A DNA stretch of 64,000 bases from Candidatus Peribacteria bacterium (GCA_943355155.1 CALREJ010000001.1:2785-66784); one strand, 5' to 3'; numbered from the stretch's first letter, positions 17,117-35,352 are shown. The notes: a model not told the origin generated them from the letters alone. Program-made: numbers and translations.

Positions 17117-17620
17117 ATGGGTATACTCACGACCATGAAGCTCCGCCGTTTTCTGCAGCACGCCGTCATCCTTTTTTTTATTGCGTTTCAGGTGTCAGGA
17201 TTCATGCTCACGATGTTTCGCGTCTGGATGCCCTTTCCGCGCTCTCTTACGTTATTTTCATATGGCATGATGGCTCCGTATCAGGCGTACGATCGGTACA
17301 ATTATGATTTCGTCGCGGAGGGCTTAACAGTCGATGGCACATGGGAACCGATTTCTCTTCAGCCCTATTTTCGCGTGATTCTCGGCGAAGCGGTGGTACG
17401 CAAATTTAAATTGATTTTCACGCACCCCGACAGAGAACATGCGCGTGCGAATGCGTTGCTCATTTCTTCAAAACTTCTTCAACTGGAGCGCGGTCGTGGG
17501 CATTCCATCAAAGCCATTCGCCTGAGCTGGCAGCAGTGGCCGCAGTCACCACAGGGCATGGATACGTTACGTCAAAGTCCCCATCTCGAATCCACTCTTC
17601 TCGCAACTGTCTATGACTAA
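17117..17620 (+). CDS. Hypothetical N-terminally membrane-anchored protein (167 aa)
   Basis: TM helix AVILFFIAFQVSGFMLTMF. Its stop overlaps the next gene's start by 8 nt, suggesting an operon. Confidence 0.65.
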   Translation: MGILTTMKLRRFLQHAVILFFIAFQVSGFMLTMFRVWMPFPRSLTLFSYGMMAPYQAYDRYNYDFVAEGLTVDGTWEPISLQPYFRVILGEAVVRKFKLIFTHPDREHARANALLISSKLLQLERGRGHSIKAIRLSWQQWPQSPQGMDTLRQSPHLESTLLATVYD

Positions 17621-18509
17621 ATCATTTTTTTATCGTTGGGACAGATGGTGGACCCGGAAAGACCTGCCACACATCCTTGCGATTTTTCGCATCGCATTCG
17701 GATCATTTCTTCTCCTCGAAGCACTGACCTACGTTCAGGCTGTTCCCACTCTTTTTTCGAGTCAGGGACTCGTATTTTCTATTTGGGCGGATGCGTTCCC
17801 GATGACGATTCGATCGCTTTTTGAGCCTCCTTCTGTCGCAGTCGCGTGGCTGATTTTTTCGTTCTACTGTCTCTGCTCTGTCACTCTCGCCCTCGGCATC
17901 GCCATGCGGACATCCCTTTTCTCTCTCCTACTTCTTTTCCTCTATTACTGGCAACTCTCGTTTCACGATTTTCCGTCGTCGTATCATCGTCTATTTTTTA
18001 CGGTTTTGTTGATCCTTCTTTTCAGCGGTGCAGACAAAACTTTTTCCCTGCATATGCGACTGCGACGTGGATCATTTTTTGCATTCGAAGAAATCAGTAT
18101 TCTCCCGCAGCGACTTTTGGCACTTCAGATCACTGCGACATACATCGGTGTCGCGAGTCAAAAAATATGGTTGCCTGATTGGCAGACTGGGGAAGTGCTG
18201 ATCGCTTCTTTTTCCGGAAAATGGGCGACTCCGTGGGGCTTCGTCCTCACTCGTACATTTTCGCCTGCTGTGTTTGAGTTTCTTAACTGGATCGTCCGTC
18301 TCGGTGAATTTTTCCTTCCATTTTGTTTGTGGAACAGAGAATGGAGGTGGAAGGCGATCATTGCCGGCACACTTTTTCACGTTTCCGTCGCGGTCTTCAT
18401 GAGTATCTGGTGGTTCCTCGTTCTGCCGCCTGCGTACGTCCTTTTCTTCGATCCACGCGAAGTTCATTCGTGGCTTTCTCATCATCTTCCAATCATAAAG
18501 AAGCGCTGA
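17613..18509 (+). CDS. HTTM-domain (vitamin-K-dependent-carboxylase-like / SdpB-like) polytopic membrane protein
   Basis: WDRWWTRKDLPHILAIFRIAFGSFLLLEAL is the typical HTTM start. About 7-8 hydrophobic helices follow. Confidence 0.65.
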   Translation: MTKSFFYRWDRWWTRKDLPHILAIFRIAFGSFLLLEALTYVQAVPTLFSSQGLVFSIWADAFPMTIRSLFEPPSVAVAWLIFSFYCLCSVTLALGIAMRTSLFSLLLLFLYYWQLSFHDFPSSYHRLFFTVLLILLFSGADKTFSLHMRLRRGSFFAFEEISILPQRLLALQITATYIGVASQKIWLPDWQTGEVLIASFSGKWATPWGFVLTRTFSPAVFEFLNWIVRLGEFFLPFCLWNREWRWKAIIAGTLFHVSVAVFMSIWWFLVLPPAYVLFFDPREVHSWLSHHLPIIKKR

Positions 18510-20108: not shown

Positions 20109-23100
20109 ATGAACTCTCTTCCTTCCAGTATCGAGTCCTGTCTTCTTGATGCAGGCTTTTCCGGCACAGAAATCGTCATTTTGCAAAAGCTGCTCGAGAA
20201 CGATTCGCTCACCCTCCGTGAACTTGCGGCAAAAACGGGGAAGAGTACGGGCGTGCTCGATCAGGCCATGTCGAAACTTCTGAAGAAAAAAATCATCCAT
20301 CGCCAGATGGTCAATGATGCACCAAGATATATCCTTCAGTCGCTGCAGACCGTGCTCGATTGGATCCGTGATGACACGGAACTGCGTCAGCAGATGATGA
20401 TACGAAAATACCAAAATTTCGAAGCATTCCTTGCGTCTCTTCAGAAAAGAAAAACGCGACCCGAAATGGAATATTTTGAAGGAGAAGAAGGGATCCGTCG
20501 TGCGTACTCTCAGCTCCTCGATCGCGGGAAAGTATTTCTTTCCTACGGCCCTGTTCAATCCCCGGATATCGAAGAAGAATTGATCGACGTACGCAAACAC
20601 AATATCCGCGACCGAAAGAAGCGTGAAATTTTCTCCCGCGTCATCACCCAAAACACCCCGCTCGGTCGTCGTCTGCAATCCCGCGACCCCTTCGAATTCC
20701 GCCACACTGTCCTCGTCGATCCAGAAGAATACCCCTTCGCCTTCGAAACCATCATCGTGGGCGACACCGTCGCGTGTTTCCAGCTGAAAGACAAACGCGC
20801 CTGCTTCATCCATTACCCCGAACTCGCAGAGGAAGAGCGCGCCTTCTTCGAGAGTGTGTGGCAAAAAAACACAGTGCATACGCAAAAAGAGCCGGAGAGG
20901 AAAGAGGGGAGGGAGGTGATTGAAATGTCATCCCCCAGAAAAAAAGTACCGATGAGGGAAATCGTCAAAATACTCTTGCGAAAAAGAAACATTGGAATCT
21001 TGAGTGGTCTTTTTGTTCTCCTTTGTGCTCTTATTCCTGCAGCGTATTTTTATACTTTTTCAGTGACAAAGGCGGAGGTTGGCCAGCGATTGATGGCAAT
21101 TGTTTCGACTGCTGCAAAGGACATACGTGCAGATGATCTATCTGTACTTCACATCGCGAGCGACATGCAGCGTCCGGAGTATCAGAGAGTGTTTAACACA
21201 TTGAACGATGTGCGCAATCGGAACCACAATATTTTGTACATTTTTATCTACAGACCTACGGACATTCCGAATATGTGGGAATTTGTTGTCGATGCTGATT
21301 CCAATGTTAACTTACCTTTTGAAAGCGACGTGAATCATGATGGGAAGATTGATCCAAGTGAGCAGAATGTGTATCCGGGACGAAGCTATGACATGAGTAC
21401 CCAATCGCCTAAAATTTTGAATGAAGGAATGATCCGTCCGGTCTATGACACGACGACCTATACCGATCAATGGACGACAGATATCGCAGCGACAGCACCG
21501 ATTATGGATTCAAATGGTAATGGTGTGGCCGTCCTCTCCGCAGATATTTCCATGAAGGAACTTACGACTCTCGCATCCGCACACTTCAAACCTATTTTGT
21601 ATGGGTTGCTTGGAATGATTCTTTTGATTCTGATTGCGATGGGGGTGCAGGGGTGGGGGGTGCTGAGGGAGTGCTCTCTTTCAAACTTTAATTCACGATC
21701 ACGCTACACCCCCTTTTCCCGATGGGGCGAATTTTTCTTTAGTAAAGGAAGTGTAGCTATCTTCGGAGCATGTGCAGGATTATCCCTACTAGCGACATAT
21801 GCTTTCTACGCGCAAAATTTATATTTCAATACACAGCGCATTCGCGAGCAAGTAAAAAGCATCGCAGCGACAGGTGCGATTCAATTTTCTGCATCTGATA
21901 TCAATCAAGTGAGAAGCAAATATGATATTCAGAAGCCTGAGTACACAAAAATCATTCGTCAGCTCAATGATATACGCGATCAAAATCCCGATGTGAAATT
22001 TATCTACATCATGCGACCGACTGGAGATCCATTAAAATATGAATTCGTTGCAGATGCTGATTCCATTGATCCGGATAAAGTCTTTGATTTGAATCGTGAT
22101 GGAATACTGGATAAAGCAGATGAAAATATTGCGCCGGGAAGGCCATATGATGGCTCTCTTATTGATGTGTTACGTGATCATTCCTATACAGTGCCGATTG
22201 CGAGCAGTAAGGTATTTACGGATCAATGGGGAACGTTCATTTCTGGCTTCGCGCCAATCAAAGGTAGCGATGGCACTATCGTAGGTATTCTAGGAGTCGA
22301 TAAATGGGCAACCGATGCACACAACGCTACAAAAAATAGTTTTTCTTTGTGGGTTTGGGGCATAGTGTTTTTCCTTATTTTTTCTAGCTTAGGTCAGATT
22401 ATTTTTAACAGAGATATTCTTAGGGATTTGTACAAATCTATCAATGTGCGAAAAGTAATGATCAGCCTAGGAATCTCTTTCCTTTTAGCGACTTCCGTAA
22501 CCTATGGGCTCTATCTCTACACGCAAAAACTCACTCTTCAGCGCATGCAGCAGGTGGTGAAGTCTGTTGCAGAGGCTGCGGCATTGCAATTTAGTGCAGA
22601 TGATTTGAATGCCCTGCAAGTTGAAGAAGATTGGAAGAAGCCGGAGTGGGCGAAGGTGGTGAATCAGTTGAAACAAATTCGTGATAATAATAAGAATCTT
22701 GTCTACACATATATTCTAAGAAAAGATATTAAGGATGGCACAAAAATAAATTTTGTATCGGAAGCCGAATCAATTAATCCATATGTAAACATAGATAACG
22801 ATCCGAATAATAATATCGATGAAAATCAAGACGGCCTTATCGATGGAACACCAACAGGTGGCGATTATCTTGTTTGGCCTGGTCAACAATATGTAAATGC
22901 CCCGCCTGAAACCTTTCAAGCATATGCAGGTTCAACAACTAATCGGGAATTTTATGAAGATCAATTTGGCAAAGTGATTTCGGGTTATGCACCGATCAAA
23001 GATATTGCGGGAAAAACCGTAGCTGTTTTTGCAGCAGATATGCATGCCAATAAGTTGAATGAAATTGCAAAGAATAGCTTCATGCCATTCTACTTTTTTT

Positions 23101-23159
23101 TAGTAGTATTTATGCTTTCATTAATTATTCAATTCACTGCTTCCTATCGAAAATTTTGA
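20109..23159 (+). CDS. Fusion protein: TrmB-family transcriptional regulator, six TM helices and three tandem extracytoplasmic Cache/PDC-like sensor modules (1016 aa)
   Basis: N-terminal wHTH (GTEIVILQKLLENDSLTLRELAAKTGKSTGVLDQAMSKLLKKKII) and a TrmB-like C-domain run to about aa 255. Three modules then follow, each ending ...(Y/F)(T/E)DQ(W/F)G..ISG(F/Y)APIK...G..V(G/A)(I/V)... and each bracketed by hydrophobic helices. Confidence 0.8.
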   Translation: MNSLPSSIESCLLDAGFSGTEIVILQKLLENDSLTLRELAAKTGKSTGVLDQAMSKLLKKKIIHRQMVNDAPRYILQSLQTVLDWIRDDTELRQQMMIRKYQNFEAFLASLQKRKTRPEMEYFEGEEGIRRAYSQLLDRGKVFLSYGPVQSPDIEEELIDVRKHNIRDRKKREIFSRVITQNTPLGRRLQSRDPFEFRHTVLVDPEEYPFAFETIIVGDTVACFQLKDKRACFIHYPELAEEERAFFESVWQKNTVHTQKEPERKEGREVIEMSSPRKKVPMREIVKILLRKRNIGILSGLFVLLCALIPAAYFYTFSVTKAEVGQRLMAIVSTAAKDIRADDLSVLHIASDMQRPEYQRVFNTLNDVRNRNHNILYIFIYRPTDIPNMWEFVVDADSNVNLPFESDVNHDGKIDPSEQNVYPGRSYDMSTQSPKILNEGMIRPVYDTTTYTDQWTTDIAATAPIMDSNGNGVAVLSADISMKELTTLASAHFKPILYGLLGMILLILIAMGVQGWGVLRECSLSNFNSRSRYTPFSRWGEFFFSKGSVAIFGACAGLSLLATYAFYAQNLYFNTQRIREQVKSIAATGAIQFSASDINQVRSKYDIQKPEYTKIIRQLNDIRDQNPDVKFIYIMRPTGDPLKYEFVADADSIDPDKVFDLNRDGILDKADENIAPGRPYDGSLIDVLRDHSYTVPIASSKVFTDQWGTFISGFAPIKGSDGTIVGILGVDKWATDAHNATKNSFSLWVWGIVFFLIFSSLGQIIFNRDILRDLYKSINVRKVMISLGISFLLATSVTYGLYLYTQKLTLQRMQQVVKSVAEAAALQFSADDLNALQVEEDWKKPEWAKVVNQLKQIRDNNKNLVYTYILRKDIKDGTKINFVSEAESINPYVNIDNDPNNNIDENQDGLIDGTPTGGDYLVWPGQQYVNAPPETFQAYAGSTTNREFYEDQFGKVISGYAPIKDIAGKTVAVFAADMHANKLNEIAKNSFMPFYFFLVVFMLSLIIQFTASYRKF

Positions 23160-23196
23160 AAGAAATTATTTTAGCAAAGAGTCATAAGATCTAAGA

Positions 23197-25038
23197 TTAT
23201 ATATCTAGTAAGAGCAAAATATGATCGTGATTTGCTTCAAAAAGAAACTGTGCGAGTCTCGGGCCAGAATCTTTCCCAAATAGCAAATAATAAATTTGTC
23301 GATAAAGAGCAAGTTGCTCAATTCTATTTTCCCTTTCTGTTGCGCCAAATCTTTTAGGTATTGAATAGAGAATCGACTCTAATTCTTCGACTTTCGAAAA
23401 TCTATTTTTTTTCAAAAAATTATGCAACTCTCTTATTTGATCAATATGTTTCAGCTCCATGTCAGACATGTATTCTATATTTGGCTCAGTAAGCAAACTA
23501 TGAATCATTCGAGAAGATATTTCCGAATATCTTTTCCCTTTATCTGTAAGTTCCAGCAGGTCAATATACATTTTTGCAAGCAAAATAGGTGCATCTTTTT
23601 TTACTGAATTCTTTTGGCCAAGCAATTTTTCAATATTTTTTGTCATTATTTTTTGCATTCCATTTCTTGATTTTCTTAGATTTTCCAAGTTTCCTAATTC
23701 CAAAATAGGTCTTACGATATAATCGTATATTTCTCGTTGTGGCAGTGTAGGTTTGCAAGTTATTTTTCGATTAATACTAACACTAGACGCTCCATGCCCG
23801 TAACCTCCATAGGGCTGAGTCCCTCTTTCTATGCCATGCGCATGTAAATGTGTATTTCTAATTATAGTACTCTCATCGTGCAGTAGTTTATCGTTAACAT
23901 ATTTCCCAGCCAAACTATCTATGTATTTGCTATCACCATAAACCGTGACATACATTGCGTTACGTGCATACTGATCATTTTCAAAATAATTAGAAAGCAT
24001 TACATCGTTTTCATATTCTTGTATAAAAAAAATTGGAGCAAAAACTTCATTATAATTACCCCCATCACGCAAAGGCTTATTTATTATTGTTGGCTCAACG
24101 ATTGACTGATTAGTGCGAATAACACCAGGTGTGTTTGAATTAATCCATTTTTTATTTTCAACTAAAAGCCCCTGTATTCTAATCAAATCTTCAATATCAT
24201 TAATTGGGCCAACGATACAGGATCTATCGTTGTAGTTACCAATTTTGATCCTTCTTAATTTTTCAAGCAATAGATTGTTAAATACAAGGAAAGATCTATT
24301 ATGAACAAGAATTGAATTTGGCGAGGCACAATCTTGGCCTTGGTTATATAGTTGCAATGTAAGAGCAGCTTCAACACTGTTAGAAATATCAGCGTGTTCA
24401 GTAATTATTAGGGGATTGTGACCGGCTCCATTTGTTATAAATAGGGTACGCTGATCAAAAACGGTACGCAAACGATCTGCGTGAAATGGAGTGCCAGTAA
24501 AAATAACTACGTCAGTAACTGGCTGATTTTCCTGTGTTTTGGTATTGATACATAAGGCCGTACGTTCAATTAAAAATTGTGCTCTCTCTTTTTTTGATAC
24601 ATGAATGTTTGGGAAAAAATCATGTATTTTTAGTATTTGTATAAGTTCTGGGAAAAAATATCGCATTCCTTGTGGTATTCTAAAATGTACCTCACTAGCC
24701 ATTAAAGAAGGAATAATAACAAAACAAGTTAGTGCGTAAAGTGGCTGATTCCGTGGAAGAAACGAAGTTACAGCACCAATGCGTAGCTTAAAATATTCAT
24801 TATTTTCATTGAGACTTCTTAAAAGATCTAAAGTGCGAGCAGTCTCATCCCTCACAACCTCAAAGCTTTCATACGTTGTTAATATTTTAGCAAGTGATTC
24901 AAAAGAGGCCTCAATATGTTCTGCAAATAGTAGGGCAATTTGATAACTTCTCTCAAAATCAATGAAGCTGTATTGCGATAAATCCTGAGTTGAATTTCTC
25001 ATGCCTGATAAATTATTAATTTCGTTAGCTATTAACAT
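23197..25038 (-). CDS. Aldehyde-dehydrogenase-superfamily (LuxC/acyl-reductase-like) enzyme fused to a class-I-LysRS-C-terminal-like helical domain (613 aa)
   Basis: ALDH-type Cys motif NQGQDCASPNSILV. NGAGHNP sits where ELGGKSP would be, so the Glu is absent. EVFAPIFF and PYGGYGHGAS are also present. The C-terminal ~150 aa ends ...LYRQIYYLLFGKDSGPRLAQFL, which resembles the FFKALY.VLLGKERGPRLGSF end of class I Lys-tRNA synthetases. Confidence 0.7.
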   Translation of the reverse strand: MLIANEINNLSGMRNSTQDLSQYSFIDFERSYQIALLFAEHIEASFESLAKILTTYESFEVVRDETARTLDLLRSLNENNEYFKLRIGAVTSFLPRNQPLYALTCFVIIPSLMASEVHFRIPQGMRYFFPELIQILKIHDFFPNIHVSKKERAQFLIERTALCINTKTQENQPVTDVVIFTGTPFHADRLRTVFDQRTLFITNGAGHNPLIITEHADISNSVEAALTLQLYNQGQDCASPNSILVHNRSFLVFNNLLLEKLRRIKIGNYNDRSCIVGPINDIEDLIRIQGLLVENKKWINSNTPGVIRTNQSIVEPTIINKPLRDGGNYNEVFAPIFFIQEYENDVMLSNYFENDQYARNAMYVTVYGDSKYIDSLAGKYVNDKLLHDESTIIRNTHLHAHGIERGTQPYGGYGHGASSVSINRKITCKPTLPQREIYDYIVRPILELGNLENLRKSRNGMQKIMTKNIEKLLGQKNSVKKDAPILLAKMYIDLLELTDKGKRYSEISSRMIHSLLTEPNIEYMSDMELKHIDQIRELHNFLKKNRFSKVEELESILYSIPKRFGATERENRIEQLALYRQIYYLLFGKDSGPRLAQFLFEANHDHILLLLDI

Positions 25039-25054
25039 GTATTTTTTGTGAGAA

Positions 25055-25405
25055 TTAATTTGTGACCTTCGGGAAATATAACATCAGAAAAGTGCCTGTG
25101 ATTGCAAAGGCTAATCCTAAATATTGCATCGCAGAAATTCGATTCCATTCTTGAAAAATTATCAATCCAACCATCACAGAAGTTATTGTTAATAAGGAGT
25201 CAATTGTTCCAGATGCTAGTGATAGACCAATCTTTGAGGTTGCAATTCCAAAACTAATATAAACAAACGGTGAAATTAAAACTAGTAGAAACAGCCAAAT
25301 AGATATTTTGTCAGTTCCTTTTGCCCAAATTGTGCTTATTGAATTTGCTAATACTGCAATTCCTACTGCCCCCAAAATGTATAACAAAAAAATCGGACTT
25401 TTCAT
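25055..25405 (-). CDS. Small 4-TM transporter of the SMR / ArnE-ArnF / EamA-half type (116 aa)
   Basis: Four hydrophobic helices in 116 aa. Lies 16 nt upstream of the reductase-like gene on the same strand. Confidence 0.65.
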   Translation of the reverse strand: MKSPIFLLYILGAVGIAVLANSISTIWAKGTDKISIWLFLLVLISPFVYISFGIATSKIGLSLASGTIDSLLTITSVMVGLIIFQEWNRISAMQYLGLAFAITGTFLMLYFPKVTN

Positions 25406-25630
25406 GAACTAAAGAGTAATGCTAACAACACTGTAAAAACAATTTTCATAATTATCATATACACGTACACTGTTAATACAATTCGAGATGCGTGCGCTAA
25501 TTCTCTGTTTATTAAGAAAGCATGTATTTTTTCTCAAAAAGCAATGTTTTTTGCATTTTTATTCGCCTTAGATGGCATATGTAAGGTCAAAACTTGATAA
25601 TCAAAGCGATTTTTGCTATAATTACTTGAT

Positions 25631-27091
25631 ATGGAAAAAACAAAAAACAAAAGATTAAGCTTGATTTGGGTGGGCACGGTAATTGTTCTTGGTGCAATAA
25701 TTGTCATTGCAATAATGTCTTGGTTTTTATATAAGCACACAGTAATTCTTTTGTCAGATAATTTAAGACAAAGATTGTTGTCGATAGCAATTACTCAGGT
25801 TGCCAATATTGATCCAGATGATATTCAATCTTTACAAGTGGAGGGTGATTGGAAAAAACCAGCTTGGTCACGTGTCGTAGGACAATTAAAGCGTGCGAAA
25901 AATAGCAATCCAAATATTGTTTATATGTACATTTTCAAAAAGTCAGATATTGATTCTACTAAAATGGTTTTTGTGGCAGATGCAGAATCTTTGAATCCAT
26001 ATGCAAATATAGATAATGATTTAGCAAATGATGTCGATGCGAATGGAGATGGGAAAATAGAGCCTGATGGAGCAGATAACTTGCAATGGCCAAGTCAAGA
26101 GTATCCAGAGCCACCCGCTGAGACATTTGAATCTTACAATGGACCACTAACTAGCAAAGATTTATATTCCGATGAATATGGGAAAGTATTAACTGGTTAT
26201 GCGCCGATTCTTGATTCGAATCAAAATGTTATTGCTGTTCTTGCAACCGATATAAGGGCGAATGATTTTTCAACAATTACTACACAAACACTTATTCCGT
26301 TTATTGGATTTATTATTTTCTTGGTTTTTGCGATTATTGTCTTGGCGCTATCTCTGATAATGGTTTGGAATAAGAGAGTTGAAGTTTTTGCCGAACTCGA
26401 CCGCCAAAAAGACGAACTGTTGGGTATGGTGAGCCACCAACTTGCAACGCCAGTTTCATCTTTGCGTTGGTATATGGAAATGTTTTTGGATGGAGATTTG
26501 GGTAAGGTCACGGATGAACAAAGGGTTCATCTTGTCTCTGCACAATCTGTTGCAACCAATTTATCCGATCTCGTGAGCCTTATTTTAGACGTGTCCCGTA
26601 TTCAACTTGGTCGTGTGAAGGTGGAGAAAGGCAAGTTGAAGTTGGACGATTTATTCAAGGAAATTTTAGATATTATAAAACCAAAGGCAGAACAGAAAGG
26701 CGTTCATTTTAAAGTATCTATTGATAAAAAATTACCCGTTGCGATGCTCGATAAGCGCTATACACACATGACTATTGAAAACCTTCTGAGCAATGCCGTG
26801 AAGTATACTCAGCCGAAGGGCACTGTGAATTTTACGGTCGCTGTGAAGGGTGAAACGCTCTACTGCGAAGTGTCGGATACCGGTGTGGGTATCCCCAAGG
26901 CAGACCAATCACAAATTTTCGGCAAGCTTTTCCGTGCGAGTAACGTAAGAAATGAAGTGGATGGAAATGGATTCGGTCTTTATGTGGCAAAGGGCGCTAT
27001 CGAGGCACAGGGAGGAAAGATCTGGTTCAAGAGTGAAGAGGGGAAGGGGACAACATTCTATGTTGAGTTGCCACTAAATGATGGAAAATAA
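25631..27091 (+). CDS. Sensor histidine kinase with extracytoplasmic Cache/PDC-like domain
   Basis: TM1, a sensor (aa ~45-215) paralogous to the modules of the 20109 gene, then TM2. H-box LLGMVSHQLATPVSSL, N-box LLSNAVKYT and G-boxes DTGVGI and GNGFGLYVAK. Confidence 0.9.
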   Translation: MEKTKNKRLSLIWVGTVIVLGAIIVIAIMSWFLYKHTVILLSDNLRQRLLSIAITQVANIDPDDIQSLQVEGDWKKPAWSRVVGQLKRAKNSNPNIVYMYIFKKSDIDSTKMVFVADAESLNPYANIDNDLANDVDANGDGKIEPDGADNLQWPSQEYPEPPAETFESYNGPLTSKDLYSDEYGKVLTGYAPILDSNQNVIAVLATDIRANDFSTITTQTLIPFIGFIIFLVFAIIVLALSLIMVWNKRVEVFAELDRQKDELLGMVSHQLATPVSSLRWYMEMFLDGDLGKVTDEQRVHLVSAQSVATNLSDLVSLILDVSRIQLGRVKVEKGKLKLDDLFKEILDIIKPKAEQKGVHFKVSIDKKLPVAMLDKRYTHMTIENLLSNAVKYTQPKGTVNFTVAVKGETLYCEVSDTGVGIPKADQSQIFGKLFRASNVRNEVDGNGFGLYVAKGAIEAQGGKIWFKSEEGKGTTFYVELPLNDGK

Positions 27092-27356: not shown

Positions 27357-30300
27357 ATGCCTCCATCCAGCACTCCAGAACACAGAAACAAAGACAGTAA
27401 CGAAAAGTTTGTCTTTTTGGATTATATTCCTCCCTTTGGTTCATATGAGCATATTCCTGAGCAAACACATTCTGTGTGGAGCAAACTGAGTGGCCTTTTT
27501 TCATCTGCCCGGAAGGCACGGAGGCCTTTCCAAAACTTTCCGGCGACTGCGCATGTGGAAACACTTGAGAAGCGCGCACTTCTTTCAAGCACGACTTCGC
27601 CAAGTCTCGAAATTCATACAGGTGAAGGGGAACTGGAAACTCATATTCATGATCTTGAAAAACAGATGGAAACGCTTGTGCGCGAGTTAGCAGCGAATGA
27701 CACAGCTCTCACGGCTGCTCATAAAGCAGTGGATAGTGGGAGAAATGCTCTCAGTGCTCGTCAGGCAACGCTTGATCATGCAGATGGCTTGGTTGCTGCT
27801 GATCTTTTGAAAGTCGCACCCGTTCTTGAGGCAGCAAGTAAAACTGTGCAGGCAAAGAAAGTATCGGATGCCGCTGATCTGCAGGTAAAACTTGGCACTG
27901 ACCGACTCGCTTTGGACACAGATGTCATGAAGCTTGCACGTACCGCCTACACGACTGCAGTTGCAGAACGCACGCACAAAAATCCACTATTCACTGCTGC
28001 GGTGGTAGCTCAGTGCAAAGCGGATTACACAGCAGCTTCAGCCGTGGTGACTGCTGATACGAAAGCAGTGTCCACGTTTCGTGCAACTGCGACCGCAGCC
28101 CGCGCAGCCCTAACTTCAGCACAAAAAGTAGAGGCGAAGGCACGCACAAAATATGCGCGCGATCTTACGACTCTAGCGACTGATCAAAAAAATCAAGAGA
28201 CTGCAATGCTATTGCGTGACGGCGCAGACACTTTTCTGAAAACTTCACTCACACAGGAATCAGAGTTACAAGATGCAGCAGCAAAAATTGAAAGTGATAT
28301 CACACGCTCGACTCGTGATCTGGCAGATGCCAAGGCCGAATACAGCGCACTGGCCGAAAGAAATGCCCTTGCAACGTCACTCAGTATCGTCGTACAGGCG
28401 GAACTTCAGGCCGAGGCAGAAAAAATCGCCTATCCGAAAATGTTTGTCACGTCGGTGCAGCGCAGTGATTTCGTTGAGTTTACCGTTCGCTACAGAACTC
28501 CATTGCCCTCGACAACATTTAGCGTCAAACGCGCTGCGAATGCACAAAATGAATATTTCGATGGGCCAAGTCTGGACACTCCTGTTCGCGATGGTGAGTG
28601 GAAGTTTACGATGGGTCGCGGTATTCCGAGATCAGAAGAGCTGACGATTCGTATGGTCAACGGCGAAACAGGAAAGGTAGTTGAAGAAGTGTATGGGTGG
28701 TTCAATAAGGATAGTCTTTCAGGTGGTATCAATACTGCTCAGACGTCCTTTGATATTGATGAAGAGGGAATGCTTAGTGAAAATCCCATTGCCCCTTCTC
28801 TGTCGGTCATTCGCGTTCAGGGCAATGCAGTGCTCCTCGCTATCGCAAGTCCGTTCGATCAAACCAATATTTATTCCGACACAGGCGGCCTGCTTTCCTC
28901 TGTAGAATTGTCACACAAGGGTGGCACCACCTTTACTCCCGTGACTATTTACCTCGATGCAGGTAATTGGAACGGTGATTACAAAATACATATGCAGGAA
29001 CGCCCGGGTGGTAAGGAGATCGACACGGTGAATCTTCACTGGGACAGAGACTCAAAAAGAGCGTCATTGATCGATAGCGCCGATACCTACACCGGCCCCG
29101 AAAACACAGATGGTACATTTGATGCAAAGCTAGCCCTCAATAGTATTCCGCTCACAATCGAAGATCCGGATATCGCTCGTATCCAAAGTAGCAATCTCTA
29201 CCAAGCGACGGATTCATTCGCAGGACCATTACGACTTTATATCAGTGCCGAACGTTTTCTGACAGACTTTTTCTACGCGGACTCTTCACCTTATGTGAAG
29301 TATCGAGCCGATCACATCGAAGCAACCATCGATGCCTACTGGGATCGTATTGGTCATACCTACAGTCGAGATGCGGCAAGGGATACTATTCACAAGGAAA
29401 AGGCTGCAGTGGAAAAACAGCACATGGATATGCTGCATGATCGAGAAAATGGGGCAAGAGAGCTGATCCAAAGTGCAGTCAATATTTTCCTGAAAATCCT
29501 TCGCGGCGAGTCTGATAATTTTCCTCTTCAGGATCTGGATAAGCGTGTGACATGGTGGAATGAACGCGGCCAGATCTGGTGGCTGAATCAAGTCGGTGTT
29601 TCCAGTTTCAACAGAACCCACCTCCTCAATGCAGCCAAAATCATTTTCAATAACCAGTGGCAGTATTTGTTGCAGGTGAATAATGATGTGTTGCAGTTGC
29701 GTACGTATGAGGATAGGCAGAGGGAAGCAGGACTCGCAAAAAATGCCGAAGGACAGTGGAATGCGGTATCTCCACAAGAGCCGGAACTTATTGCACCTGG
29801 TATTGATCGCAACGCACTTGTGCGTGCTGCCCGCATTGATTGGGTGATGAGAAATTCGCCGGATTCACGCATCGTTGCAATGCATGGCGATCAGAGAGAT
29901 GTATTCGTGCTTACTTTATCGAATTTTTTGTCGCAAAACCCAACCGCTGATACCCAATCCTCCATTATCGTTGCAATGAATTTAGTAGATGAACGAACGA
30001 CGGATCTTCTGAAAAACGGCGGCGTCCGTATTTCGGGTCCCACACATTCAGATCAAAAAGAAGCAGCCGATGCAATCGCAAATGTTCCTCAGCGCACACT
30101 CTACAACGAAGCCTTGTCATGGTATGACAACACTCCAGACAGTTTGCACGGCACCCTGAGTCTTCGTACAGATACTATTGTCGGGAAGATGATGATGGGT
30201 GCTGCGAGAAAATTATGGATGGAGCCGACCGCAGAAAAAAGATGGGAAATTGCTTTCACTCTGCAGCGACTCACAGATATTCCTGCGAAAAAATTCATGG

Positions 30301-31364
30301 ATATCTATGCTGCAGCAGTAGACACTTCAATTTTCAGTTCGAATATCACAAAACTTCTCGCAGACGCGCAATATGAAGTGCGCTTGTCACCGGATACGTC
30401 TTCTAGTCCACGTTTCACTGCTGCTCATCCCGATATCCCGAAATCGTCAAATCATGTGTACGATGGCAGCAGAGATATTCGTGTTCGATTCGATCTCCTC
30501 CCCTTCGGACAGGATTTCCTCTATGTCCAAGCTATCTTCAACGGTAACGTAGTAGCATCCTCGCGCTCAGCATTATTCATCGACATTCCCTTCTCTACCT
30601 TCAACCAATCTATGCCCAGTGCCACCATCACGCTCCGCGCAGGACTGTCGAATGGTACGACGATAGAAATAGAGAGTGATGCGTTTGTGATTGCTCCAGA
30701 TGCACTTTTTGATAAAGATTTCAGTAAAGTTTTAGATAGTGCTCCTGCAGATAAAAGATCTGCAGTTTCCGGAGCTTTAAAAATGGATCTTAGCAATCTG
30801 CCCGCAAAAAATAATTTGCTGCTTACATTTTTAGAGAAAAAATATTTCAGTACAGGTGAATTGCAGTTTGATGTATATAACAATACTAAAGGTTTTGAAT
30901 TACAGAGTACGCAAGAACATGGTGGTGATCAGTGCAAAACCTGGTTGTATAATATCGTGAACGAAGAGACAAATGGAGATACTCTCTTACCTCCAAATGC
31001 TACCAAGAGCACATGGGATTTAGAGAACAATAATGAAATTTCAACAATTTCCTCTGGTATAAAAGGAGAATTTGAGACCAAGACAATCGATTGTGTGAGC
31101 GGAGATATTGTGCAGGTCGATTATAGTGGTAGACAACATACAATGGTTATTGGAAAAGTCGAGAACACGGGTATTTGGTTCTTTGATTCAAATTTTGGTG
31201 AATTGCAAGAATATGAGATGGATCCAAATGATTCGACTAAATTTTTACTTGATGTAAATGGTAATAAAAATCTACTACAAGATGATGAAACAGTGAGGTA
31301 TCACTTTATTTCCTACGATACGCTTAATAAAAATGCGCTGGAATTTTCAATTTACAGGCTATAA
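27357..31364 (+). CDS. Large exported protein (1335 aa) with a basic N-terminal LE.R.LLS motif, an Ala/Thr-rich coiled-coil region and a C-terminal papain-like (NlpC/P60 or CHAP type) Cys-His module
   Basis: N-terminus ...SSARKARRPFQNFPATAHVETLEKRALLSS. aa ~120-380 are A/T/K/E-rich and heptad-like. C-terminus: GGDQC(1193)KTWLYN ... GDIVQVDYSGRQH(1261)TMVIGKV..GIWFFDSN. Confidence 0.8.
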   Translation: MPPSSTPEHRNKDSNEKFVFLDYIPPFGSYEHIPEQTHSVWSKLSGLFSSARKARRPFQNFPATAHVETLEKRALLSSTTSPSLEIHTGEGELETHIHDLEKQMETLVRELAANDTALTAAHKAVDSGRNALSARQATLDHADGLVAADLLKVAPVLEAASKTVQAKKVSDAADLQVKLGTDRLALDTDVMKLARTAYTTAVAERTHKNPLFTAAVVAQCKADYTAASAVVTADTKAVSTFRATATAARAALTSAQKVEAKARTKYARDLTTLATDQKNQETAMLLRDGADTFLKTSLTQESELQDAAAKIESDITRSTRDLADAKAEYSALAERNALATSLSIVVQAELQAEAEKIAYPKMFVTSVQRSDFVEFTVRYRTPLPSTTFSVKRAANAQNEYFDGPSLDTPVRDGEWKFTMGRGIPRSEELTIRMVNGETGKVVEEVYGWFNKDSLSGGINTAQTSFDIDEEGMLSENPIAPSLSVIRVQGNAVLLAIASPFDQTNIYSDTGGLLSSVELSHKGGTTFTPVTIYLDAGNWNGDYKIHMQERPGGKEIDTVNLHWDRDSKRASLIDSADTYTGPENTDGTFDAKLALNSIPLTIEDPDIARIQSSNLYQATDSFAGPLRLYISAERFLTDFFYADSSPYVKYRADHIEATIDAYWDRIGHTYSRDAARDTIHKEKAAVEKQHMDMLHDRENGARELIQSAVNIFLKILRGESDNFPLQDLDKRVTWWNERGQIWWLNQVGVSSFNRTHLLNAAKIIFNNQWQYLLQVNNDVLQLRTYEDRQREAGLAKNAEGQWNAVSPQEPELIAPGIDRNALVRAARIDWVMRNSPDSRIVAMHGDQRDVFVLTLSNFLSQNPTADTQSSIIVAMNLVDERTTDLLKNGGVRISGPTHSDQKEAADAIANVPQRTLYNEALSWYDNTPDSLHGTLSLRTDTIVGKMMMGAARKLWMEPTAEKRWEIAFTLQRLTDIPAKKFMDIYAAAVDTSIFSSNITKLLADAQYEVRLSPDTSSSPRFTAAHPDIPKSSNHVYDGSRDIRVRFDLLPFGQDFLYVQAIFNGNVVASSRSALFIDIPFSTFNQSMPSATITLRAGLSNGTTIEIESDAFVIAPDALFDKDFSKVLDSAPADKRSAVSGALKMDLSNLPAKNNLLLTFLEKKYFSTGELQFDVYNNTKGFELQSTQEHGGDQCKTWLYNIVNEETNGDTLLPPNATKSTWDLENNNEISTISSGIKGEFETKTIDCVSGDIVQVDYSGRQHTMVIGKVENTGIWFFDSNFGELQEYEMDPNDSTKFLLDVNGNKNLLQDDETVRYHFISYDTLNKNALEFSIYRL

Positions 31365-32067
31365 CTATCTTTTTTTACTATTGTTAGTGGTAAGTATTTC
31401 GGCGTGTAATAGAGCTGTTTCTACTAACTCCCACAATAATTATAGCAATAAAAATTCTCAGGTGTGTGCTATTGTAGATAAAGCGAAATGTGATAAAAAC
31501 TTTTGTAAACCGGGATATAAAACCTTTGAAAATTGGGAGATTGCGAGTGCAAGTGGAGGTTATGATTTTCTTACCGGAGATTGTGATACTGCTTTGTTAC
31601 TGCCAACGGTTCCCTCTGATTGGGTATTTCGTATTTTGCCTGATTCAAATATCGAATTATCGCTTCCTCCTAATGCAAAAATAAATGCAAAATATCTTAA
31701 CTCAAATAAAAAAGGATTTTTTGAACAAGGCCCATTTTTTTCTTGGATGATCGAAAAAAGCGAATGGAATAAATCAACAGATGATTTTCTTGATGCTCAG
31801 TGTGCAGGTGCTACAACATTCGCTTTTTCAGAAGAAAAAGGAGATTATCAGGGGTCATATTCCGCAGTGGGTAAATTTGTTTCTGGCATTAAACAAATGA
31901 ACAATGGATTCGAGGTTGCGAAATTTCAACCAAAATGCGCAAATATGATGGAATTTTTGATCCGTTACAACAATGTGATTTATGTTTTTTCTTCTCTTGG
32001 GGAAAATAGCCATGAGAGTGAAGAGAGGTTTGAAAGAAGTATTTTGAATGCAAGAGTATTCAAATAG
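31333..32067 (+). CDS. Lipoprotein (244 aa), candidate immunity protein
   Basis: Its ATG lies 32 nt inside the 3' end of the preceding gene. The signal plus lipobox is LLLLVVSISAC. AT-rich like the upstream C-terminal module. Confidence 0.65.
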   Translation: MRWNFQFTGYNYLFLLLLVVSISACNRAVSTNSHNNYSNKNSQVCAIVDKAKCDKNFCKPGYKTFENWEIASASGGYDFLTGDCDTALLLPTVPSDWVFRILPDSNIELSLPPNAKINAKYLNSNKKGFFEQGPFFSWMIEKSEWNKSTDDFLDAQCAGATTFAFSEEKGDYQGSYSAVGKFVSGIKQMNNGFEVAKFQPKCANMMEFLIRYNNVIYVFSSLGENSHESEERFERSILNARVFK

Positions 32068-32159
32068 CCTTAGTTTTTGTATTCTTCTGCCAAAGAATCC
32101 AGAATCGTTGCTGCGCAAGAGATTGACATATTTAATTATTATATTAAAATATTTATAAT

Positions 32160-32975
32160 ATGTTGCTTGACGATATATTGGCTCAGGCTAATTTTGATCT
32201 AACCAGAGTAGAAACAAATGATTTAATGCAGGATCCGCGATATTGGATGTTAGGTGAAAATCAACATTGGTTTCGCATGCAACTACTCGAAGCCATTCCT
32301 GTCTGCGTTGCTGATGTATCAACACTTCGCATTCATTCTTCAGAACATCGTATACGAACAAGAATGGAACGTTTATTTTCTCGAGAAAATACTGATGATT
32401 CCTACATGCCAGGTAAGAATCATCAAGATGAAAAAGTGAGGAAAATTACTAGTGGGAATAATGGACTGCTTGTGTGGCCTGCACAAAGTGGTATTGAAAC
32501 GATGCCAGCAAAACTTCTTGAGCACTTGGAACACCAAAATGTTATTTTCCATAAGCTACGCAATGGTTTATGGCTAGTTATGAATGGTCAAAGGAAGGAT
32601 GTGCCAGATATAAAAAATGCGAAGGTCAACATCCGCGAGTTGAGCAATCAAATTCTGACCACACTTGAAAAACATGGAAAAGTTGTAGGTGATTTCCAAG
32701 CTGAAAATGCAACAAGGCTTTGTGTGTGCGTAAAACAAACGCATGGCTTACCCGATATGAGAGTAATTGCAAATTTAAATTATCAAAAATGGATAGAGCA
32801 TCAAGTTGCTCTTTATAGAATACAGCGAGATATTGCAAAAATCGTTTCTCCTGAAAAACTTCATTTTTTAATGGAGGGCGTAGATCAATCTCAATGGCAA
32901 GAAGCAGTTGATGCAATAAAAAAAACCCCCCCGAGCGATGTTGGATATGCTTCAGCCATTGACTTCAATTTCTGA
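32160..32975 (+). CDS. Hypothetical protein (271 aa), possibly the 5' fragment of a frameshifted gene
   Basis: ATG-started AT-rich ORF. An A8C7 homopolymer pair at 32918-32932 lies just before its stop, and the next frame opens there. Confidence 0.55.
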   Translation: MLLDDILAQANFDLTRVETNDLMQDPRYWMLGENQHWFRMQLLEAIPVCVADVSTLRIHSSEHRIRTRMERLFSRENTDDSYMPGKNHQDEKVRKITSGNNGLLVWPAQSGIETMPAKLLEHLEHQNVIFHKLRNGLWLVMNGQRKDVPDIKNAKVNIRELSNQILTTLEKHGKVVGDFQAENATRLCVCVKQTHGLPDMRVIANLNYQKWIEHQVALYRIQRDIAKIVSPEKLHFLMEGVDQSQWQEAVDAIKKTPPSDVGYASAIDFNF

Positions 32976-33195
32976 AGATACCTATAGGCCAAAGAAGACA
33001 GATGAAATTGAGCGGTTGTTTATAGAAAAGGATTATCATAAAGCCTTGCACGAACTTAGTCTTTTAGAAGGGGGGAATGTATTCATCCATGAACAATTAG
33101 CAAAGGGTCATACGTTTGAAGGAAGAATACATGGTTTAGCATCTAAAAAAGAAGATGCTGTATTGGATGAATGGATGATTCTAAGATATTTCTGA
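32938..33195 (+). CDS. Hypothetical ORF (85 aa), probable middle fragment of the same disrupted gene
   Basis: Frame +1 relative to the 32160 ORF and open from 32920 onward, inside the A-run. Confidence 0.35.
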   Translation: MLDMLQPLTSISEDTYRPKKTDEIERLFIEKDYHKALHELSLLEGGNVFIHEQLAKGHTFEGRIHGLASKKEDAVLDEWMILRYF

Positions 33196-33247
33196 AAGTG
33201 CTTTTACGACATTAATAGATACAGAGATTTCAAAACGGTTTGATCGC

Positions 33248-33481
33248 TTGCACCCTCAAATAATCAAGTTAATGAAAAAAAATTTGGGAATGAAGGATGT
33301 GGGTATTTTAATTCTTGGCGGTGCACATTTCAGTTCTGGATGGAATAAAAAAATACCAATTGAATGTAATGACAAGTTGATGGAAGATTATTTCAATAAA
33401 TCTAAAGAATTAAAAGACATGCGCCTCATTGTCGTAGACCCACACTGCTATGGTGGGATCGATAATAACATTGGTTCATGA
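33248..33481 (+). CDS. Hypothetical ORF (77 aa), probable 3' fragment of the same disrupted gene
   Basis: Frame is open from 33185 and overlaps the end of the previous fragment (stop at 33193-33195). It is again shifted +1. The listed start is TTG. Confidence 0.35.
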   Translation: MHPQIIKLMKKNLGMKDVGILILGGAHFSSGWNKKIPIECNDKLMEDYFNKSKELKDMRLIVVDPHCYGGIDNNIGS

Positions 33482-33618
33482 CTCGGTGTGAGAATGTTTT
33501 AACTATTTTAGGAACGTCATATTAAGCGAAAACATGTTCATCCTTCTATACATTTTTGTGCTGTAAAAAAATTCAGGATTAACACGTTGTTGCTATATCT
33601 ATCTGCTATCATCCCCCC

Positions 33619-35352
33619 ATGCTCACAAACCCCGAGATTGCGGCGGTGTTCGAGAGGATTGGGAAGATACTCGATTTGCGTGGGGAAAATGTGTTTCGGG
33701 TGCGGGCGTATCAACGCGCGGCGCAGGTGATCGAATCGCTTTCGGAAGAGTTGAAGTCGATTCATGAGCGGGGCGGGCGTGATGCGCTTTTGGAAATTCC
33801 GGGGATCGGGCAGGACTTGGCAGATAAGATCATTGAGATGCTTGCGACGGGTAAATTGAAATATATTGCAGAACTCCAGAAGACGATGCCGAAGGGGCTT
33901 TTTGACATCATGGAAATTTCGGGGATGGGACCGAAGAAAACGAAGATGTTGTGGGAAAAATACGATATCAAAAATATTGCGGAGCTCGAGAAATTGATGA
34001 AGTCGGGAAAACTTTTGAAGGTGAAGGGGTGGGGAGAGAAGTCTGTCGAGAATGTACTCACGGGAATCGCAGCAAAGCGTGCGCACAGTGGTCGGACATC
34101 ACTGCCTACTGGGCTCGCAGTTGCAGAAATGCTGAAGGAAGAATTACTCAAAACTGGGCTCTGTGACAAAATTGAAATCGCGGGAAGTGTGCGGCGGCGC
34201 AAAGATACGATCGGCGATCTCGATATTTTGGTTGCAAGTAAGAAACCAGAAAAGGTCATGAAAGCATTTTGCACGCAAAAAGACGTAGCGCAGATTTTGG
34301 CTCAGGGAGAGACGAAATCGAGTGTTCGACTCAAGAACGGATTGCAGGCCGATTTGCGTGTGCTCGACATCAATGTGTTTGGCGCAGCACTCCACTACTT
34401 CACCGGAAGCAAGGAGCACAATGTTCATATTCGCCAGCTCGGGATCAAACACGGACTCACCATTTCCGAGTATGGCGTCTACAAAGGAACTGCGGAGAAA
34501 AAGGGGAAATTGATGGCATCGAAAACAGAGGAAGATATTTACCGTGCAGTCGGACTCCCGTTCATCGAACCAGAACTTCGTGAAGACAAATGGGAAGTAG
34601 AAGCAGCTCAGAAAAAAATGCTCCCCGATCTCATCACGCTTTCAGATCTGCGAGGAGACCTCCATCTCCATAGTAATTTCAGTGATGGTGCCGCAACGAT
34701 GATCGAGATGGCTCAGGCTGCGAAAAATGCCGGTCTTGAATATATCGCAATCACCGATCACGGCTCTCCGATGGGCATGGTGTACGGCATCAAAGAAAAA
34801 AATATCAAAGAGTATTTGAAAAAAATTGACGAAGCACGGAAGGCAGTTCCGGGCATTCACATCCTCGCCGGAACGGAAGTTGATATTCTCGAAGATGGCA
34901 GCTTGTATCTATCAGACAAAATCCTCAAACAACTTGATTGGGTCGTGGCTTCCATTCATGGACATTTCAAGATGACCCATGCTGCGATGACGAAGAGAAT
35001 TATCCGCGCAATCGAACATCCGCTCGTGAATGTCATCGCACATCCAACAGCACGACTCCTCCTCAAACGCGATCCGATCGAATACGACATGGAAGCGGTA
35101 CTGAAGGCAGCATCAAAAAATAACGTCGCGATGGAGATCAACGCATCTATCGAACGTTTGGATCTAAATGATCTTCATGCGAAGCGGGCCAAAGAACTGG
35201 GCATCATGCTCACGATCGACAGCGACGCCCACCACCCCCGCGACCTGAGTTACCGCTTTGGGATTACTCAGGCACGGAGGGGATGGATCGAGAAGGGAGA
35301 TGTGCTCAATACGAAGTCGTGGAAGGAGTTTGAAAAGTGGAGGAACGCATAG
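33619..35352 (+). CDS. Family X DNA polymerase with C-terminal PHP phosphoesterase domain (PolX)
   Basis: HhH-rich N-terminus (NPEIAAVFERIGKILDLRGENVFRVRAYQRAA), a pol-beta-like nucleotidyltransferase (GSVRRRKDTIGDLDILV) and a PHP domain (GDLHLHSNFSDG...ITDH). Confidence 0.9.
   Translation: MLTNPEIAAVFERIGKILDLRGENVFRVRAYQRAAQVIESLSEELKSIHERGGRDALLEIPGIGQDLADKIIEMLATGKLKYIAELQKTMPKGLFDIMEISGMGPKKTKMLWEKYDIKNIAELEKLMKSGKLLKVKGWGEKSVENVLTGIAAKRAHSGRTSLPTGLAVAEMLKEELLKTGLCDKIEIAGSVRRRKDTIGDLDILVASKKPEKVMKAFCTQKDVAQILAQGETKSSVRLKNGLQADLRVLDINVFGAALHYFTGSKEHNVHIRQLGIKHGLTISEYGVYKGTAEKKGKLMASKTEEDIYRAVGLPFIEPELREDKWEVEAAQKKMLPDLITLSDLRGDLHLHSNFSDGAATMIEMAQAAKNAGLEYIAITDHGSPMGMVYGIKEKNIKEYLKKIDEARKAVPGIHILAGTEVDILEDGSLYLSDKILKQLDWVVASIHGHFKMTHAAMTKRIIRAIEHPLVNVIAHPTARLLLKRDPIEYDMEAVLKAASKNNVAMEINASIERLDLNDLHAKRAKELGIMLTIDSDAHHPRDLSYRFGITQARRGWIEKGDVLNTKSWKEFEKWRNA

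Follow-up and report, generated by a model that had tools for sequence, protein, structure and literature searches.

The stretch of DNA analyzed here, 64,000 nucleotides (nt) in length and hereafter termed the window, derives from a 119.8-kb metagenome contig assembled with MEGAHIT (ENA ERZ27280294). It harbors a gene encoding a modular protein of 1335 amino acids (aa), which is predicted to be exported, and an overlapping downstream gene encoding a lipoprotein (Table 1). From the N- to the C-terminus, the protein comprises a short segment with a basic stretch and an LE.R.LL-type motif, an Ala/Thr/Leu-rich helical region, two conserved body blocks (A and B), a junction motif and a C-terminal tip, which is predicted to adopt a papain-like fold. 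The initial annotation described this open reading frame (ORF) as a polymorphic-toxin-like protein; the ORF is present as described, and the proposed architecture gains support from the structural model of the tip, the conservation of the putative catalytic residues and the variation of tips at the junction.

Table 1. Features of the putative effector locus, with positions counted from the first nucleotide of the window.
Feature	Position	Strand	Remarks
Putative effector gene	27357..31364	+	1335-aa modular protein, predicted to be exported; from the ORF list and the gene call on the source contig
Basic stretch ARKARR (aa 51-56) and LE.R.LL-type motif VETLEKRALLSS (aa 67-78)	27507..27590	+	
Ala/Thr/Leu-rich amphipathic helical (coiled-coil-like) region, aa 90-350	27624..28406	+	from composition and periodicity
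Conserved body block A, aa ~360-880	28434..29996	+	many homologues align over aa ~350-880
Conserved body block B, aa 890-1114	30024..30698	+	always directly before the tip; 42 carriers
Junction motif SDAFVIAP (aa 1107-1114)	30675..30698	+	end of ...DGTxIExxSDAFxVxP, kept in both tip classes
GC change point, best estimate 30706	30639..30776		maximum likelihood, 2-log-likelihood support interval
C-terminal tip, aa 1118-1335	30709..31364	+	helical pre-domain and CHAP/NlpC-P60-like papain-fold core (predicted)
Cys1193, predicted nucleophile	30933..30935	+	invariant; first residue of a helix in the model
His1261, predicted general base	31137..31139	+	invariant; on a β-strand in the model
Asp1277-Ser-Asn1279 (FDSN)	31185..31193	+	candidates for the third catalytic residue; Asp and Asn invariant
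Lipoprotein gene, 244 aa, lipobox ISAC, Cys25	31333..32067	+	shares 32 nt with the end of the effector gene; candidate immunity protein or inhibitor
Three small ORFs (271, 85 and 77 aa) in the AT-rich island	32160..33481	+	membership of the system uncertain
Right end of the AT-rich island, best estimate 33613	33571..33631		where the PolX gene begins (33619)

Homologues were collected by an exhaustive phmmer search with residues 360-1335 as the query against 1.84 billion cluster representatives, which yielded 145 proteins, 64 of them at E <= 1e-10 and 23 at E <= 1e-30. These sequences come without taxonomy. Gene contexts were drawn from 15 related loci (numbered with the prefix L), some of which duplicate each other. 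Pattern scans with a 5-sequence tip alignment, the 33-sequence one being too diverse, located six of them in species-representative genomes, comprising five Candidatus Peribacteria metagenome-assembled genomes (MAGs) and one 3.5-kb contig binned as Gammaproteobacteria; a further nine come from Joint Genome Institute (JGI) metagenomes. Word-indexed searches miss the family: the full protein retrieved only itself, the tip retrieved nothing, and a 33-sequence profile of block B plus tip did not retrieve even its own members, which makes negatives from the index unreliable.

Local re-alignment of the homologues delineated three modules: block A, block B (to residue ~1114-1117) and the tip (residues ~1118-1335). 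Block B is found in 42 proteins, of which 16 possess the CHAP-like tip, 25 another C-terminus and one a remainder of 44 aa. Nearly all of the other C-termini (23/25) belong to one family of ~300 aa with HxxxD and HxH motifs, and Pfam Peptidase_M23 was found in four of the five that were tested (E = 1e-20, 1e-16, 2e-6 and 8e-3). BLAST homology between the M23-type relatives and the window protein stops at residues 1112-1117. Alignment of the junction revealed that the end of block B (...DGTxIExxSDAFxVxP) is conserved in both classes, beyond which the CHAP-like and M23 sequences diverge. The body is thus kept while the C-termini vary, in that about 25 proteins carry a different tip after the same junction, and the family displays the homologous body with non-homologous tips (CHAP-like and M23 after one junction) by which polymorphic toxins are recognized. 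In a tree of block B, a rough neighbour-joining one without support values, CHAP-type and M23-type proteins are interspersed, and the window protein clusters with the M23-type P0004 and P0014. P0004 shares the whole body (residues 334-1114) at 33% identity, and the CHAP-type P0002 and P0003 share it at 32%. As judged from these sequence comparisons, the interspersion of tips and the body identities form the pattern that would be expected of repeated tip replacement.

The tip family has 41 members, which are always located at the extreme C-terminus and end in ...Y-R-[ILV]. An alignment of 33 tips, with a mean column identity of 26%, revealed that Cys1193, Lys1194, Trp1196, Trp1220, Gly1249 and Gln1253 are invariant, as are His1261, Thr1262, Gly1272, Trp1274, Asp1277 and Asn1279. 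The Cys and His that the initial annotation singled out as papain-type landmarks are therefore invariant in a highly divergent alignment, and their codon positions had been given correctly. Prediction by AlphaFold2 (AF2) with the tip alignment produced a confident model, with a predicted local distance difference test score (pLDDT) of 88.2 and a predicted template-modelling score (pTM) of 0.85, compared to a pLDDT of 34 from the single sequence. In this model, a helix at model residues 71-82 opens with the Cys, the His sits in the strand 137-146, and the Asp/Asn pair is located at the end of the strand that follows the His strand; the modelled order of Cys-helix, His-strand and Asp/Asn-strand is consistent with a papain-like arrangement.

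Structural similarity search using Foldseek placed CHAP domains at the top of both libraries, in agreement with the papain-like fold called in the initial annotation. The best matches in the PDB are the CHAP endolysins Ly7917 (PDB 5d74) and PlyGRCS (PDB 8xyf and 8h1i), with a probability of 0.91-0.97 and E values from 8e-3, and those in BFVD are phage CHAP and Peptidase C51 proteins, with a probability of 0.98 and E = 6e-3. Lower in the PDB list are Tse1/Tae1 (E about 0.7-1), C39 peptidases, Cif and glutathionylspermidine amidase. Against Pfam Amidase_6, the window tip scores 14.6 bits (cut-off 23.2), and sub-threshold matches to this family were obtained for 17 of the 33 tips (best E 1.8e-4) and to CHAP for 8 of the 33 (best 2.5e-4). 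As these lines of evidence, each weak singly, all agree, we conclude from sequence and model that the tip is most probably a divergent, as yet unmodelled papain-like hydrolase of the CHAP/NlpC-P60 type. The tip resembles the CHAP endolysins Ly7917 and PlyGRCS in having a Cys at the start of a helix followed by a His on a strand; however, it shares only 11-13% identity with them, superimposes at a template-modelling (TM) score of about 0.35 and stays below the Pfam CHAP threshold. Compared to these endolysins, it has in addition an N-terminal helical pre-domain and the ...Y-R-[ILV] end, and is found in a non-phage context.

Nearly all tips end with Tyr, then Arg, His or Lys, then an aliphatic residue (31353-31361 in the window), 0-6 residues before the stop. 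This conserved ending may serve either to cap the structure or as a signal for recognition at the C-terminus. Sequence searches of the PDB, in which tip and body were each used both as a single sequence and as a profile, returned nothing meaningful; one match to ARX1 (E = 0.007) is confined to the GD..Q..HT strand region and was regarded as spurious.

The boundary of the tip is also marked by base composition. GC content decreases from 0.474 upstream to 0.357 downstream of the change point inside the ORF, with a log-likelihood ratio of 21.8, compared to at most 8.8 in 500 block shuffles. The decrease is seen at all three codon positions, with third-position GC (GC3) falling from 0.44 to 0.28, and amino-acid composition alone is therefore no explanation. 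The junction motif ends 8 nt before the change point (30698 and 30706), and homology to the M23-type relatives stops at the same place, so that the boundaries of composition, domain and homology coincide. The initial annotation had placed the break between 30,650 and 30,850, a range that contains our estimate, and the end of the AT-rich island at about 33,540, which proved slightly short.

Wherever a locus includes body sequence, its tip and partner gene have a markedly lower GC content than the body and the flanks. The GC3 values of body, tip and partner are 0.44, 0.28 and 0.27 in the window; 0.58, 0.36 and 0.24 in L002; 0.72, 0.42 and 0.37 for the CHAP-type gene of L006; 0.75, 0.43 and 0.40 for its M23-type gene; and 0.73, 0.58 and 0.52 in L004. 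Overall GC, in the same order, is 0.54, 0.42 and 0.33 in L008, 0.57, 0.46 and 0.41 in L013, and 0.56, 0.42 and 0.41 in L014. Homologues that carry the same tip in DNA of uniform composition were sought, and none was found; the same drop was seen instead. Its recurrence across loci rules out a chimeric assembly as the cause.

A gene encoding a protein with a signal peptide or lipobox lies at the stop codon of all 17 tip genes (that of the window, six from the genome loci, the M23-type gene of L006 and nine from the metagenome loci), either overlapping it by 1-32 nt or starting within a few nt. The position of the downstream lipoprotein, which the initial annotation had pointed out, is thus conserved throughout the set, although one partner copy (L015) is interrupted. 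Sequence divergence among the partners is rapid; at least two families can be distinguished, besides singletons. The window lipoprotein shares a homologous C-terminal domain with the partners from L008 and L009, the loci with the closest tips, and with those from L007 and L010; in L007, L009 and L010, this domain is fused to S-layer homology (SLH) repeats (E about 1e-22). The presence of either SLH repeats or a lipobox indicates that the partner is anchored at the envelope, by lipid or by SLH depending on the lineage. The proteins encoded at L007 282-1313, L009 472-1530 and L010 1700-2833 each have a signal peptide and two SLH repeats, and lack a lipobox, a composition that implies attachment to the cell wall. 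A match of the window lipoprotein to the NCBIfam model for a type VI secretion system (T6SS) immunity periplasmic lipoprotein (E = 0.056) was discounted, as only the signal peptide is aligned.

L006 (4628-17730) carries two family members in tandem, one CHAP-type (an open frame of 1922 codons) and one M23-type (1737 codons), each accompanied by an overlapping lipoprotein gene and a GC drop of its own. In L003 (CAYZVS010000027.1) and L016, a stand-alone tip gene of 206 aa is followed by a lipoprotein gene on the 3.5-kb contig binned as Gammaproteobacteria, with a possible transposase-like ORF upstream of the tip gene. This contig is either mis-binned or a mobile copy of the cartridge.

The N-terminal region of the window protein reads SSARKARRPFQNFPATAHVETLEKRALLSS, in which LEKRALL begins at residue 70; both the basic stretch and the LE.R.LL motif of the initial annotation are present. 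The pattern [LIVM]E.R.[LIVMF][LIVMFA] occurs within the first 160 residues in 37 of the 113 homologues that reach 800 aa or more, compared to 1.4 expected and to a maximum of 4 occurrences in 200 shuffles, which makes the motif a feature of the family and not a product of chance. The classical signal peptide said to be lacking was not found either: the maximum Kyte-Doolittle mean over 15 residues is 0.55 within the first 145 aa, and all 19-residue windows of the whole protein are at or below 1.46, leaving no candidate for a Sec signal or transmembrane helix. The motif had been likened to that of exported proteins of Planctomycetes-like bacteria. The motif itself holds, and the planctomycete connection does not, as the host is a Peribacteria-like bacterium of the candidate phyla radiation (CPR). 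The window N-terminus has no match at E <= 10 to the LEPR-XLL model (NCBIfam NF012209; 24 positions, cut-off 17 bits), and the homologue P0027 reaches 11.6 bits, under the cut-off. The window protein shares with LEPR-XLL proteins the short N-terminal L-E-x-R-x-L-L after a basic stretch and the setting in very large exported proteins; it differs in scoring below the NF012209 threshold and in that the Peribacteria form of the motif is L-[ED]-D-R-I-x-P-S.

The helical region (residues 90-350) contains 21.5% Ala, 11.9% Thr and 11.5% Leu, with only 2 Pro and 5 Gly, and shows a hydrophobic periodicity of 3.5 residues (z = 3.2) that is absent from the remaining protein. On these sequence properties it fits amphipathic helices or a coiled coil, in line with the long coiled coil predicted in the initial annotation. 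Block A has no match in Pfam, NCBIfam or the PDB, and the relatives P0018 and P0028 have Laminin_G_3 domains in their N-terminal parts. Domains of type V, VI and VII secretion systems (T5SS, T6SS, T7SS), Rhs, contact-dependent growth inhibition (CDI), Photorhabdus virulence cassettes (PVC) and TcdB/TcaC, as well as a Sec signal, were absent from the protein and from the scanned window ORFs, in line with the earlier statement that the window holds no T6SS, T7SS, Rhs or CDI marker. A delivery body without known secretion markers points to an undescribed export or sorting signal, for which the LE.R motif is the candidate.

The host was assigned by synteny. The segment 14503-31364 of the window is syntenic with positions 6023-19356 of L002, a Candidatus Peribacteria MAG, with identities of 62% for LigA, 62% for a PilT-like ATPase, 39% for a protein with a TrmB helix-turn-helix (HTH) and sensor repeats, and 47% for a histidine kinase. 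The effector-lipoprotein pair adjoins the kinase gene in both, but its orientation relative to the kinase is inverted between the two. This synteny indicates a Peribacteria-like CPR bacterium and not a planctomycete as the host, which is tiny and probably symbiotic. Peribacteria have genomes of about 1.25 Mb with 58.5% GC, make peptidoglycan and S-layer proteins, encode a type II secretion system (T2SS) and type IV pili, and have been noted for large, strain-variable extracellular proteins (PMC4736985).

The effector-lipoprotein pair combines features of several known systems. In Escherichia coli Rhs proteins, a GC-rich core is followed by an AT-rich extension and tip. The general frameworks are those of polymorphic toxins (PMC3482391) and of C-terminal displacement in Rhs (PMC2935791). 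The window system shares with Rhs and CDI (CdiA) a conserved body, a short junction motif, non-homologous tips and a partner gene directly downstream (PMC3482391, PMC2935791), and likewise has a tip and partner that are AT-rich and compositionally distinct from the core. However, Rhs proteins have YD/RHS repeats and a PxxxxDPxGL motif at the end of the core, whereas the window protein has no RHS Pfam match and the junction ...SDAFVIAP. CDI systems have CdiA with a two-partner secretion (TPS) domain, filamentous hemagglutinin (FHA) repeats and a VENN motif, together with CdiB, whereas no such Pfam match was obtained in the protein or in the scanned window ORFs. The window system also differs from both in its two tip classes, in its CPR host, and in the absence of orphan cassettes and, within the window, of T5SS or T6SS genes.

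With the T6SS effectors Tae1/Tse1 and their immunity proteins Tsi1/Tai, the pair shares a papain-like Cys-His amidase, here a predicted one, and an adjacent gene for an extracytoplasmic partner. Tae1/Tse1 are small, stand-alone and fired by a T6SS; by contrast, the present enzyme forms the C-terminal part of a large protein (1335 aa), a T6SS was not seen, and the similarity in structure is weak (E about 0.7-1). The alternative M23 tips of the family recall the M23 bacteriolysins lysostaphin and zoocin A, which are secreted peptidoglycan hydrolases directed against neighbours and have linked self-protection. Immunity to these two is conferred by cross-bridge modification through FemABX-like enzymes. 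They are small, Sec-secreted and devoid of lipoprotein immunity, whereas the window encodes a large protein with a lipoprotein partner as the candidate immunity protein.

We therefore read the pair, with a probability of about 0.6, as a polymorphic effector of the peptidoglycan-hydrolase type, which is paired with cognate immunity and carried by a new delivery body, in a Peribacteria-like CPR bacterium. The basic stretch and LE.R.LL motif, which lack a Sec-type core, would be followed by the helical stalk, a body of ~760 aa, the junction and an enzymatic cartridge. The cartridge of the window would be a divergent CHAP/NlpC-P60-type cysteine hydrolase, predicted to cleave peptidoglycan with Cys1193, His1261 and Asp1277 or Asn1279 as the catalytic set, and that of other family members an M23 metallo-endopeptidase. 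It would move as a pair with the partner gene, which is coupled to it in translation and whose extracytoplasmic product is anchored by lipid or by SLH repeats. Most likely, this product binds the hydrolase at the wall of the producer itself and blocks its activity, and so probably protects the producer. Recombination at the junction may have exchanged the AT-rich unit of cartridge and partner, by the C-terminal displacement known from Rhs and CDI toxins. Once exported, the effector could be used against neighbours, either competitors or the host of the symbiont.

Several observations weigh against this effector-immunity reading. The Foldseek matches have E values of only 6e-3 to 8e-3 at a TM score of about 0.35, and no tip reaches a Pfam gathering score (14.3-17.4 bits among the matches listed, compared to cut-offs of 23.2 for Amidase_6 and 26 for CHAP). 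Only two tip classes were found, far fewer than in classical polymorphic toxins, and both are cell-wall hydrolases, which is compatible with a dedicated role in wall remodelling. The nearest tip is only ~40% identical, so that neither a recent donor nor a swap between near-identical bodies can be pointed to. The tip tree and the partner families are congruent only in part, and orphan tip or immunity cassettes are lacking, as tblastn of tips, M23 C-termini and partners against the window gave only chance matches outside 30600-32070. Low GC is not specific to the cartridge, because the sensor halves of the kinases are AT-rich as well (in the window, L002 and L006), which suggests that extracytoplasmic or variable segments in these genomes generally tend to be AT-rich. 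Moreover, the neighbourhood with the histidine kinase and the PilT-like ATPase is conserved in several Peribacteria, and could thus reflect a resident housekeeping function.

The main rival is a resident autolysin or wall-remodelling enzyme whose CHAP or M23 head acts on the producer's own peptidoglycan, for example in division, in the insertion of pili or an S-layer, or in the remodelling of attachment sites, with the lipoprotein as its regulator or activator. The domains of both tip classes are of kinds common in autolysins or endolysins, no other toxin class occurs among the 145 homologues, the locus keeps its place beside the kinase and the PilT-like ATPase in Peribacteria MAGs, and Peribacteria make peptidoglycan and S-layers (PMC4736985). 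Such an enzyme is nevertheless made less likely by tip classes that are interspersed on the body tree, an AT-rich tip and partner that recur in every locus with a body, and partners that diverge fast into several families. The tandem paralogues of L006, each with a partner of its own, and the 1-32 nt overlap or close abutment, which is typical of toxin-antitoxin or effector-immunity pairs, likewise speak against it, and we regard a resident enzyme as rather unlikely.

A derivation from phage, as a tail-associated lysin of a prophage or a tape-measure-like protein, would account for the long helix with a C-terminal CHAP or M23 head, which recalls some phage tail lysins, and for phage endolysins being the best structural matches. 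It is very improbable, however, given that a search of 2.9 million viral contigs yielded no relatives, that phage genes are absent from the vicinity, that the N-terminal LE.R motif is common to many large non-phage proteins, and that the chromosomal neighbourhood is conserved. Still less credible is a GC break that marks no module boundary and results from a chimeric assembly or purely from amino-acid composition. The contig does stem from a MEGAHIT metagenome assembly, and Asn, Lys and Ile are abundant in the tip; yet the frame stays open through 219 codons of AT-rich DNA, the break falls within 8 nt of the homology and domain junction, the same drop appears in independent assemblies of other samples, and GC3 drops as much as the first- and second-position values (GC1 and GC2).

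A broader, joint reading goes further, and we put it forward only as a tentative possibility. The family might represent a new trafficking class of polymorphic wall-lytic effectors specific to CPR/Peribacteria-like bacteria, which would be exported by the LE.R motif and displayed at the surface on the helical stalk, so that an episymbiont could open the peptidoglycan of its host while lipoprotein or SLH immunity guards its own wall, with AT-rich cartridges spreading horizontally among lineages of 48 to 62% GC. The logic of polymorphic toxins and that of amidase effector-immunity pairs are known already; for the body, the junction motif, the tip and partner families, the apparent export signal and the host lineage, no described match was found in the libraries and literature searched. 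Little is established about the ways in which ultra-small CPR/Patescibacteria attach to hosts and competitors or feed on and kill them, and almost none of these bacteria can be cultured. The locus provides a concrete candidate, with ~145 large proteins, a defined junction, two interchangeable hydrolase heads and a co-inherited envelope partner. It is tractable without culturing the organism, since the tip and partner can be expressed in E. coli, and it would extend the Rhs/CDI architecture of a body, an AT-rich exchangeable tip and immunity to a new lineage and delivery body.

Downstream of the lipoprotein gene, the three small ORFs of the AT-rich island have no family match and no similarity to tips or partners; the 271-aa ORF, the sole one of the three that was looked up, forms a singleton cluster. 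Upstream of the effector gene, a second AT-rich island (22662-26390) has a GC content of 0.34, compared to 0.46-0.48 around it. It spans from the third sensor repeat of the ORF at 20109-23159 to the inside of the histidine-kinase gene (25631-27091), and stops just past the kinase sensor domain. This sensor domain is 40% identical to the third sensor repeat and 26-30% identical to repeats 1 and 2, with no similarity at the DNA level. The upstream ORF, which encodes 1016 aa and contains a GC break, was considered as a second toxin and rejected, as it consists of a TrmB-like HTH and three sensor repeats and is unrelated.

Farther away, the minus strand at 41562-57706 encodes a giant ORF of 4241 aa with SdrD B-like domains and membrane-spanning segments near the N-terminus; it is overlapped and preceded by a Ser-rich ORF of 1140 aa with a weak MG2 match. 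The two ORFs form a further locus for large surface proteins, of a kind that is typical of CPR genomes. A protein with an HTTM (gamma-carboxylase-like) domain is encoded at 17613-18509. At 63319-63969 on the minus strand lies a gene for a small secreted protein with a terminal PEP-CTERM motif (Pfam E = 4e-6), which is unexpected for a CPR-like genome.

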